Assembly (NCBI RefSeq): GCF_017348835.2
Contig: NZ_CP071375.1
Length of the DNA: 64,000 nt
Direction: 5' to 3' (one strand)
Source of the DNA: Escherichia coli
Lineage (GTDB): Bacteria > Pseudomonadota > Gammaproteobacteria > Enterobacterales > Enterobacteriaceae
Under the pieces are notes generated by a model. The model searched no databases. It was not told the origin of the DNA and worked only from the letters and a program-made list of their open reading frames with translations. The position numbers were made by a program, and so were the translations under genes. Shown one piece after another: positions 12,222 to 58,499 of the stretch. Numbering within the stretch: the stretch's first letter is position 1; each line of letters starts with the position of its first letter.

Positions 12222-13763
<1,542 letters not shown>

Positions 13764-14117: not shown

Positions 14118-17020
<2,903 letters not shown>

Positions 17021-17114
17021 ACAACGCCGAAGGTGTTTTGGCGGATTGAGAGAAGATTTTCAGCCTGATACAGATTAGATTAACCGGCGGTAAGCGGGTT
17101 AATACAACAGAATT

Positions 17115-17234
17115 TGCCTGGCGGCCGTAGCGCGGTGGTCCCACCTGACCCCATGCCGAACTCAGAAGTGAAACGCCGTAGCGCCGATGGTAGTGTGGGG
17201 TCTCCCCATGCGAGAGTAGGGAACTGCCAGGCAT
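17115..17234 (+). rRNA. rrfB: 5S ribosomal RNA
   Basis: TGCCTGGCGGCCGTAGCGCGGTGG...GGAACTGCCAGGCAT, 120 nt. Confidence 0.96.
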
Positions 17235-17244
17235 CAAATAAAGC

Positions 17245-17278
17245 AGAAGGCCCGGTCGGAAGACTGGGCCTTTTTGCG
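17245..17278 (+). terminator. rho-independent terminator after 5S
   Basis: Hairpin GGCCCGGTC-GGAA-GACTGGGCC followed by TTTTTGCGTTTC. Confidence 0.75.
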
Positions 17279-17368
17279 TTTCTACAAACTCTCCCTGTCG
17301 TCATAACTACAAGCCATCCCCCCACAGATACGGTAAACTAGCCTCGTTTTTGCATCAGGAAAGCAGCT

Positions 17369-18397
17369 ATGAACCACTCCTTAAAATCCTGGAACACATT
17401 TGGCATTGATCATAATGCTCAGCACATTGTATGTGCCGAAGACGAACAACAACTACTCAATGCCTGGCAGCATGCAACCGCAGAAGGGCAACCCGTTCTT
17501 ATTCTGGGAGAAGGAAGTAATGTACTTTTTCTGGAAGACTATCGCGGCACGGTGATCATCAACCGGATCAAAGGTATCGAAATTCATGATGAACCTGATG
17601 CGTGGTATTTACATGTAGGAGCCGGAGAAAACTGGCATCGCCTGGTAAAATACACTTTGCAGGAAGGTATGCCTGGTCTGGAAAATCTGGCATTAATTCC
17701 TGGTTGTGTCGGCTCATCACCTATCCAGAATATTGGTGCTTATGGCGTAGAATTACAGCGAGTTTGCGCTTATGTTGATTGTGTTGAACTGGCGACAGGC
17801 AAGCAAGTGCGCTTAACTGCCAAAGAGTGCCGTTTTGGCTATCGCGACAGTATTTTTAAACATGAATACCAGGACCGCTTCGCCATTGTAGCCGTAGGTC
17901 TGCGTCTGCCAAAAGAGTGGCAACCTGTACTAACGTATGGTGACTTAACTCGTCTGGATCCTACAACAGTAACGCCACAGCAAGTATTTGATGCGGTGTG
18001 TCATATGCGCACCACCAAACTCCCTGATCCAAAAGTGAATGGCAATGCCGGTAGTTTCTTCAAAAACCCTGTTGTATCTGCCGAAACGGCTAAAGCATTA
18101 CTGTCACAATTTCCAACAGCACCAAATTACCCCCAGGCGGATGGTTCAGTAAAACTGGCAGCAGGTTGGCTTATCGATCAGTGCCAGCTAAAAGGGATGC
18201 AAATGGGTGGGGCTGCGGTGCACCGTCAACAGGCGTTAGTTCTCATTAATGAAGACAATGCAAAAAGCGAAGATGTGGTGCAACTGGCACACCATGTAAG
18301 ACAAAAAGTGGGTGAAAAATTTAATGTCTGGCTTGAGCCTGAAGTCCGCTTTATTGGTGCATCAGGTGAAGTGAGCGCAGTGGAGACAATTTCATGA
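17369..18397 (+). CDS. murB: UDP-N-acetylenolpyruvoylglucosamine reductase (342 aa)
   Basis: Full-length ORF; conserved rrnB-murB-birA arrangement. Confidence 0.93.
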
Positions 18398-58211: not shown

Positions 58212-58305
58212 ACAACGCCGAAGGTGTTTTGGCGGATTGAGAGAAGATTTTCAGCCTGATACAGATTAGATTAACCGGCGGTAAGCGGGTTAATACGACA
58301 GAATT

Positions 58306-58425
58306 TGCCTGGCGGCAGTAGCGCGGTGGTCCCACCTGACCCCATGCCGAACTCAGAAGTGAAACGCCGTAGCGCCGATGGTAGTGTGGGGTCTCCCCAT
58401 GCGAGAGTAGGGAACTGCCAGGCAT
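58306..58425 (+). rRNA. rrfE: 5S ribosomal RNA, second copy
   Basis: TGCCTGGCGGCAGTAGCGCGGTGG...GGAACTGCCAGGCAT, 120 nt; differs from the first copy at one position (GGCAGTAG vs GGCCGTAG). Confidence 0.96.
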
Positions 58426-58435
58426 CAAATTAGAA

Positions 58436-58466
58436 AAACCCCGGTCCATAAGGCCGGGGTTTTTTG
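58436..58466 (+). terminator. rho-independent terminator after 5S
   Basis: AAAAACCCCGG-TCCATAA-GGCCGGGGTTTTTTGC. Confidence 0.85.
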
Positions 58467-58499
58467 CATATCAATTATTTGCATGATGAAGGGAATCTC

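Follow-up and report, generated by a model that had tools for sequence, protein, structure and literature searches.

The single terminator hairpin between the 5S rRNA gene and murB at the rrnB position of Escherichia coli

We analyzed the 3΄ end of the ribosomal RNA operon at the rrnB position in a 64,000-nt stretch of Escherichia coli DNA (hereafter, the window), and found that one hairpin separates the 5S rRNA gene from murB. This hairpin (positions 17243-17277) and its U-tract are very probably the sole Rho-independent terminator of the operon, representing an old and widespread family allele that has probably been shuffled by gene conversion or recombination. As an ordinary, canonical intrinsic terminator in the layout usual for Enterobacteriaceae, it carries little weight by itself.

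Anatomy and folding of the operon 3΄ end

A complete rRNA operon was identified in the window by Rfam search (16S rRNA, 12222-13763; tRNA; 23S rRNA, 14118-17020; 5S rRNA). The 5S rRNA gene of this rrnB-position operon (rrfB) occupies positions 17115-17234 of the plus strand; its mature ends were obtained by stretching the Rfam call (RF00001, 17117-17232, 92.8 bits) by 2 nt on each side according to an alignment with the 120-nt K-12 rrfB annotation. Sequence comparison placed the 5S 3΄ trailer CAAATAAA at 17235-17242 (plus strand). The pentamer CAAAT of this trailer is common to all rrn operons, and the A at 17240 is T1-like, a position at which O157:H7 and T2 carry T. The single intrinsic-terminator hairpin (17243-17277, plus strand), identified by folding and covariation, thus lies 8 nt 3΄ of the 5S gene and is co-directional with the 16S-tRNA-23S-5S operon. 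Its GC-rich core stem of 9 bp (17249-17257 paired with 17262-17270) contains seven G-C pairs, one G-U pair and one U-A pair and encloses a GGAA loop (17258-17261), and an outer A/U-rich stem (17243-17248 paired with 17272-17277) extends the whole stem to 15 bp. The U-tract TTTTTGCGTTT (17271-17281, plus strand) shows no differences from the tract that follows T2 of K-12 rrnB, and apart from 2 mismatches the rrnB-specific spacer (17282-17368, plus strand) follows the K-12 sequence beyond T2 collinearly. The following gene, murB (UDP-N-acetylenolpyruvoylglucosamine reductase; 17369-18397, plus strand), was assigned from the annotated murB of matching genomes, and its ATG at 17369 opens a 342-aa translation. 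Residue 7 of this MurB (17387-17389) is Ser (TCC) in the window and Pro (CCC) in K-12.

We computed the minimum folding energy (MFE) of the hairpin and compared it with those of shuffled sequences. The 51-nt hairpin segment had an MFE of -26.1 kcal/mol (z = -5.8), a value equaled by 0 of 200 shuffles, and a 76-nt segment had a z of -3.8. The ΔG of -26.1 falls between those of K-12 T1 (-32.6) and T2 (-22.7), and each of the three hairpins is far more stable than its own shuffles. Moreover, 16 distinct T1-core alleles from 8 genera could be aligned without gaps, and this small set of related sequences, which is supportive rather than decisive, showed the 9 core pairs to be 99.3% paired, with compensatory changes in 3 of the 9 (G-C to A-U, C-G to U-A and A-U to G-C). 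When the core partners were shifted by one to three columns in the same 16 alleles, pairing reached only 17-55%.

The locus accordingly has the elements of a Rho-independent terminator, namely a GC-rich stem-loop with a U-tract directly 3΄ of it, at the 3΄ end of a transcription unit and on the transcribed strand. A consensus promoter/terminator scan called no terminator in the window; on K-12, the same scan called T1 and missed the established T2, whose flanks are identical. Because K-12 T2 is missed as well, the null result in the window reflects a limitation of the tool and is uninformative, and we rejected it as evidence against a terminator. In K-12, T1 and T2 terminate 87% and 100% of transcripts, respectively (Orosz 1991, as quoted in PMC8144298), and by analogy with both we infer that the window hairpin terminates transcription. 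As RNA polymerase transcribes the 16S-tRNA-23S-5S unit, the GC-rich stem-loop would form in the nascent RNA, and the polymerase would pause on the U-tract and then release, with the operon ending 137 nt before murB. Such release at the U-tract would shield murB-birA from rrn read-through.

The initial annotation had stated that rrnB of K-12 ends in T1 followed by T2, and alignment with MG1655 (NC_000913.3, 4171400-4172400) confirmed this order: the 5S gene, T1, an extra sequence ending in a second AACTGCCAGGCATCAAAT, T2, the same spacer and murB. The same alignment bore out the single hairpin of the window, with 5S, one hairpin and murB in succession. The distance between the two K-12 terminators had been put at about 100 bp, with a partial 5S repeat within it; the repeat is present (18 nt), but the length is 166 bp including the rrB TLR/sRNA gene. 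MG1655 has 166 bp more than the window between 5S and murB, and these extra bases comprise T1, the TLR/sRNA gene rrB and an 18-nt copy of the 5S 3΄ end. According to Stenum et al. 2021 (PMC8144298), a tRNA-linked repeat (TLR; Rudd 1999) lies between T1 and T2; the small RNA RrB arises from it by T1 read-through and binds Hfq and CsrA, and rrA and rrF, near-identical copies of rrB, sit at rrnA and rrnD. A K-12-type T1-rrB-T2 end has two successive hairpins after the 5S gene, a TLR body (GGGAGCGGATTTGAACGTTGCG...GCCCGCCA) between them and a second 18-nt 5S 3΄ end (AACTGCCAGGCATCAAAT) about 150 bp downstream. In the 5S-murB interval of the window, we found one hairpin only, no TLR sequence and no copy of the 5S 3΄ end beyond that of the 5S gene itself. 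A search of the whole window for the TLR sequence, allowing up to 3 mismatches, gave 0 matches. Rfam contains no family for the hairpin and none for the rrB/TLR region.

Terminator alleles in E. coli and other Enterobacteriaceae

We compared the rrnB intervals of 11 genomes and distinguished three alleles, namely the tandem, a single intact T2, and a single T1-type core in T2-type flanks. The tandem allele (326 nt from GGAACTG to the murB start) was found in K-12 and O104:H4. The single intact T2 allele (158 nt) was found in APEC O78:H4, RUT3575 and CX07, and accounted for about 5 of 59 sampled chromosomes (~8%). The third allele (160 nt; about 26 of 59, ~44%) was carried by the window, PE164, O157:H7, 3347558, ECAMP047, STEC299 and the B2 strain NRG857C. 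The 160-nt interval of the window is the same as that of PE164 and differs from that of O157:H7 by one nucleotide; over 21.6 kb, the window is 100.0% identical to PE164 and F2_81. For an 83-mer from the window, 8 genomes gave matches with ≥99% identity and 1,482 gave matches with ≥80% coverage.

The initial annotation had described the hairpin as a hybrid with T2-like flanks and a T1-like stem, and a column-wise comparison with K-12 T1 and T2 supported this description. In the window allele, CAAATAAA is T1-like at one base, GCAGAAGGCC is T2-like, CGGTCGGAAGACTG is a T1-type interior and GGCCTTTTTGCGTTTCTAC is T2-like. In the O157:H7 allele, the flanks are exactly those of T2 and the interior alone is replaced, and strain 3347558 has an exact T1 core (GGCTCAGTCGGAAGACTGGGCC) inside T2 flanks.

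To estimate how frequent the single-hairpin end is, we used a 381-nt query extending from 5S to murB, for which 5,394 of the 5,426 complete E. coli genomes gave matches covering 80% of the query or more. Among 59 chromosomes taken at even steps of the ranking, 31 matched in one collinear piece and 28 in two pieces spanning 545 bp (tandem), so that about 53% of complete E. coli genomes would carry a single-hairpin rrnB. A query composed of TLR, T2 and the rrnB flank placed the tandem at rrnB in roughly 2,500-2,670 of the 5,426 genomes (46-49%), a range obtained from spread rows and an identity band, as the tandem count at ≥80% coverage is contaminated by rrnA and rrnD matches with 80-82% coverage. 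All these frequencies refer to complete RefSeq genomes, a set in which clinical and laboratory clones are heavily over-represented, and the split into classes is based on the 59-row sample and indirect counts. Judged from these genomes, the single-hairpin rrnB end is a variant that occurs naturally and commonly, and does not represent a deletion specific to one strain. The idea that the arrangement is peculiar to this strain therefore does not hold; the alignment against K-12 and other E. coli that had been proposed as a check recovered the tandem in K-12, whereas many other strains, including O157:H7 and NRG857C, share the single hairpin.

We scanned species-representative genomes with MurB as the query and obtained 80 loci, none of them from Salmonella or E. 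fergusonii; in 48 of the 80, the contig reached a 5S 3΄ end. One hairpin lies between 5S and murB in 45 of these 48 informative Enterobacteriaceae loci, and the TLR was found in the other three (Citrobacter portucalensis, Kluyvera genomosp. 3 and Enterobacter sp. CC120223-11). Within Escherichia, the 5S gene is directly followed by a single T2-type hairpin in the representatives E69 and E1V33, and by a single T1-type hairpin in E. whittamii. E. albertii has a window-like core, GGCCCGGTCGAAAGACCGGGCC, on a contig whose first bases already belong to the left flank of the hairpin, so that single and tandem states look alike. Single hairpins with a T1 core in T2-like flanks were found in C. amalonaticus ku-bf3, Phytobacter massiliensis, strain RIT691 and Kosakonia oryzendophytica; at the same site, the hairpin of Kosakonia oryzendophytica is identical to that of the window at 39 of 40 positions, and that of C. 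amalonaticus ku-bf3 is near-identical. Across the loci compared, the single state is evidently the norm at the rrn-murB locus in Enterobacteriaceae and the K-12 tandem is a minority arrangement, and both hairpin cores are old and are found in several genera.

Other arrangements of the locus were also observed. In Escherichia sp. MOD1-EC7003 (L022:1-421), an rrnA/rrnG-type flank containing REP lies between the terminator and murB, which constitutes a fourth arrangement; the flank is followed by an ORF fragment that we take to resemble the start of a transposase. Enterobacter sp. JUb54 (L040:1700-2000) has an intermediate architecture, in which a T1-type hairpin is followed about 60 nt later by a T2-type hairpin, with neither a TLR body nor a 5S remnant in between. 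A contig labelled Chryseobacterium sp. 18061 (L074) carries an enterobacterial 5S-murB locus with a MurB 77% identical to the query, and probably represents a mislabelled or contaminated assembly.

Origin of the window allele and absence of the RrA/B/F module

We extracted all rrn 3΄ ends of K-12, and they bear out the account of Stenum et al. 2021. The rrnA, rrnB and rrnD (after rrfF) operons end in T1, TLR, the 5S remnant and T2, and the modules of rrnA and rrnB are 100% identical over 158 nt. In rrnG, the 5S gene is followed by a lone T2-type hairpin with an rrnA-type flank; rrnE has a hairpin unrelated to T1 and T2, and rrnC and rrnH run on into tRNA genes. Because the T1-TLR-T2 module is also present at rrnA and rrnD of K-12, the relevant process would be exchange among rrn operons and not a purely local event. 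We infer such exchange from the identity of the K-12 rrnA and rrnB modules, the flank shared by rrnG and rrnA, and a 23S-5S helix variant shared within the window. The window allele has a T1-type stem-loop core within the flanks that surround T2 in K-12, and in the PE164-like lineage the K-12 module (T1, the rrB TLR/sRNA, the 18-nt 5S repeat and T2) is simply absent. Through gene conversion and homologous recombination, both the terminator alleles and the state of an operon end, with or without the T1-TLR module, may have been shuffled from operon to operon and from strain to strain. If so, the locus is a neat case of concerted evolution extending past the rRNA genes into their terminators.

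The shared helix lies in the 23S-5S spacer (17076-17108 and 58267-58299), where rrnB and rrnE of the window have the same unusual variant, TTAACCGGCGGTAAGCGGGTTAA. The corresponding helix of K-12 rrnB is ATCAGAACGCAGAAGCGGTCTGAT, a whole-helix swap relative to the window in which pairing is kept, and the shared variant looks like within-strain concerted evolution between operons. The second operon of the window, rrnE (5S at ~58306-58425), has the same terminator hairpin as rrnE of K-12; the terminator AAAAACCCCGGTCCATAAGGCCGGGGTTTTTT (58426-58475) and the yjaA start are identical to those of K-12. As the rrnE terminator is unchanged, the terminator polymorphism is specific to certain operons.

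The initial annotation had suggested a deletion or recombination between T1 and T2, or else an ancestral unduplicated state, in this strain. A recent deletion of a K-12-like T1-rrB-T2 end, through the 18-nt 5S repeats or a crossover between the T1 and T2 hairpins, would explain why the length difference equals exactly the 166 bp repeat unit, and would be in keeping with the equally clean absences at rrnD and rrnA of PE164 and with the 5S-plus-intact-T2 allele at rrnB of other strains. However, loss mediated by the 18-nt 5S repeats would leave 5S followed by an intact T2 (GGCCATCCTGACGGATGGCC), which is not the window allele, with its T1-type core (GGCCCGGTCGGAAGACTGGGCC) in T2-type flanks; and since the succession of T2 flank, T1 core and T2 flank requires at least two exchange points, a single crossover between T1 and T2 cannot produce it. 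The allele is also shared by roughly 44% of the sampled E. coli and occurs nearly unchanged in other genera, and it is therefore neither recent nor strain-specific. We rejected both the single crossover and the repeat-mediated deletion on the basis of this mosaic structure and of the true deletion-type single T2 that occurs elsewhere; the genome comparisons leave a recent deletion largely refuted, and we consider it highly improbable. A collapse of the tandem repeat region during assembly might also be envisaged, as 18-nt direct repeats flank the missing unit and further copies of it lie at other rrn operons, a setting in which short-read assemblers can err. However, the same contiguous layout is present in thousands of independent complete genomes, and collapse cannot yield a hairpin that differs from both T1 and T2, so that the probability of such an artefact is close to nil.

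One sub-variant of the explanation by exchange among operons, from which it differs in polarity alone, is a short-patch gene conversion: the stem-loop interior of an ancestral T2-type rrnB terminator, single or tandem, would have been replaced by that of a T1 donor located in another rrn operon, yielding the mosaic. The O157:H7 allele, with its exact T2 flanks and replaced interior, and the exact T1 core in the T2 flanks of strain 3347558 are both consistent with such an event, and O55:H7, itself single at rrnB, has a T1 donor at rrnD. On the other hand, the flanking homology amounts to only about 5-7 nt per side, no T1 donor is left at rrnA or rrnD of PE164, and the same mosaic in Kosakonia, Citrobacter and E. 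whittamii favors an old allele; we regard this polarity as a tentative possibility. The old, widespread allele exchanged among rrn operons remains our preferred reading. The ancestral unduplicated state thus came closer than deletion or recombination, except that it had been ascribed to this strain, while the allele is old and widespread.

PE164, the genome nearest to the window, is without the T1-TLR-T2 module at rrnA, rrnB and rrnD. At its rrnA (L099:31587-31806), the gap between 5S and mobB is 103 nt, compared with 269 nt in K-12, and contains a single T2-type hairpin; at its rrnD (L100:22387-22565), the gap between rrfF and yhdZ is 62 nt, compared with 228 nt in K-12, and the 5S gene is directly followed by K-12 rrnD T2. 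Of the 5,426 complete E. coli genomes, 3,975 were matched in a sensitive blastn search with the 115 TLR-specific bases, and the other 1,451 (27%) gave no match. O157:H7 strains have one copy of the TLR, and in O55:H7 the copy is located at rrnD. These results moderately favor the idea that T1-rrB/TLR-T2 is an accessory cassette gained and lost at rrnA, rrnB and rrnD, that the PE164-like lineage is a natural triple null for RrA/B/F with ~27% of genomes lacking any copy, and that the window-type hairpin is an ancient cross-genus allele maintained at the rrn-murB junction.

On the module, our literature searches found one paper, Stenum et al. 2021 (PMC8144298), which stresses the conservation of these sRNAs between species and does not mention absence at the strain level, and presence or absence among strains is described nowhere in the papers searched. 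If the cassette interpretation is true, natural strains can do without the Hfq- and CsrA-binding RrA/B/F sRNAs, which have been described as conserved, and comparisons of matched strains that naturally carry or lack them could serve to seek their function. The absence of rrB from about half of E. coli, and of the whole RrA/B/F family from about a quarter, is relevant to studies of these sRNAs and of CsrA/Hfq titration, although this natural absence is a modest side note.

Comparison with the K-12 terminators

The rrnB T1-T2 pair of K-12, which is used more than any other terminator in cloning, does not typify the species E. coli. The window hairpin resembles T2 of K-12 rrnB in its site, where the rrnB-specific spacer and murB come next with no further hairpin, in its left flank (CAAAT[A/T]AAGCAGAAGGCC), which is one base apart, and in its U-tract and downstream flank (GGCCTTTTTGCGTTTCTACAAACTCT), which are identical. 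It differs from T2 in the stem-loop interior (ATCCTGACGGAT in T2, CGGTCGGAAGACTG in the window) and in a stem that is one pair longer and more stable (-26.1 versus -22.7 kcal/mol). Moreover, T2 follows the 18-nt 5S remnant, whereas the window hairpin directly follows a real 5S gene.

With T1 of K-12 rrnB, rrnA and rrnD, the window hairpin shares a homologous core (GGC[C/T]C[G/A]GTCG[G/A]AAGACTGGGCC), which has 2 differences from that of rrnA T1 with pairing kept, and a location directly after 5S CAAATAAA. However, the T1 flanks (AAAACGAAAGG...CCTTTCGTTTTATCTG) form a 20-bp perfect stem and the TLR comes next, whereas in the window the flanks are of the T2 type and are followed by the murB spacer. 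The TLR sRNA module of rrB and RrA,B,F, which fills the site between T1 and T2 in K-12, is absent from the window. In this respect, the window is similar to rrnG and rrnE of K-12, which also consist of 5S, CAAAT and one hairpin with a U-tract and without the TLR, although the rrnG core is of the T2 type, the CCCCGG stem of rrnE is unrelated, and the downstream flanks of both differ as well.
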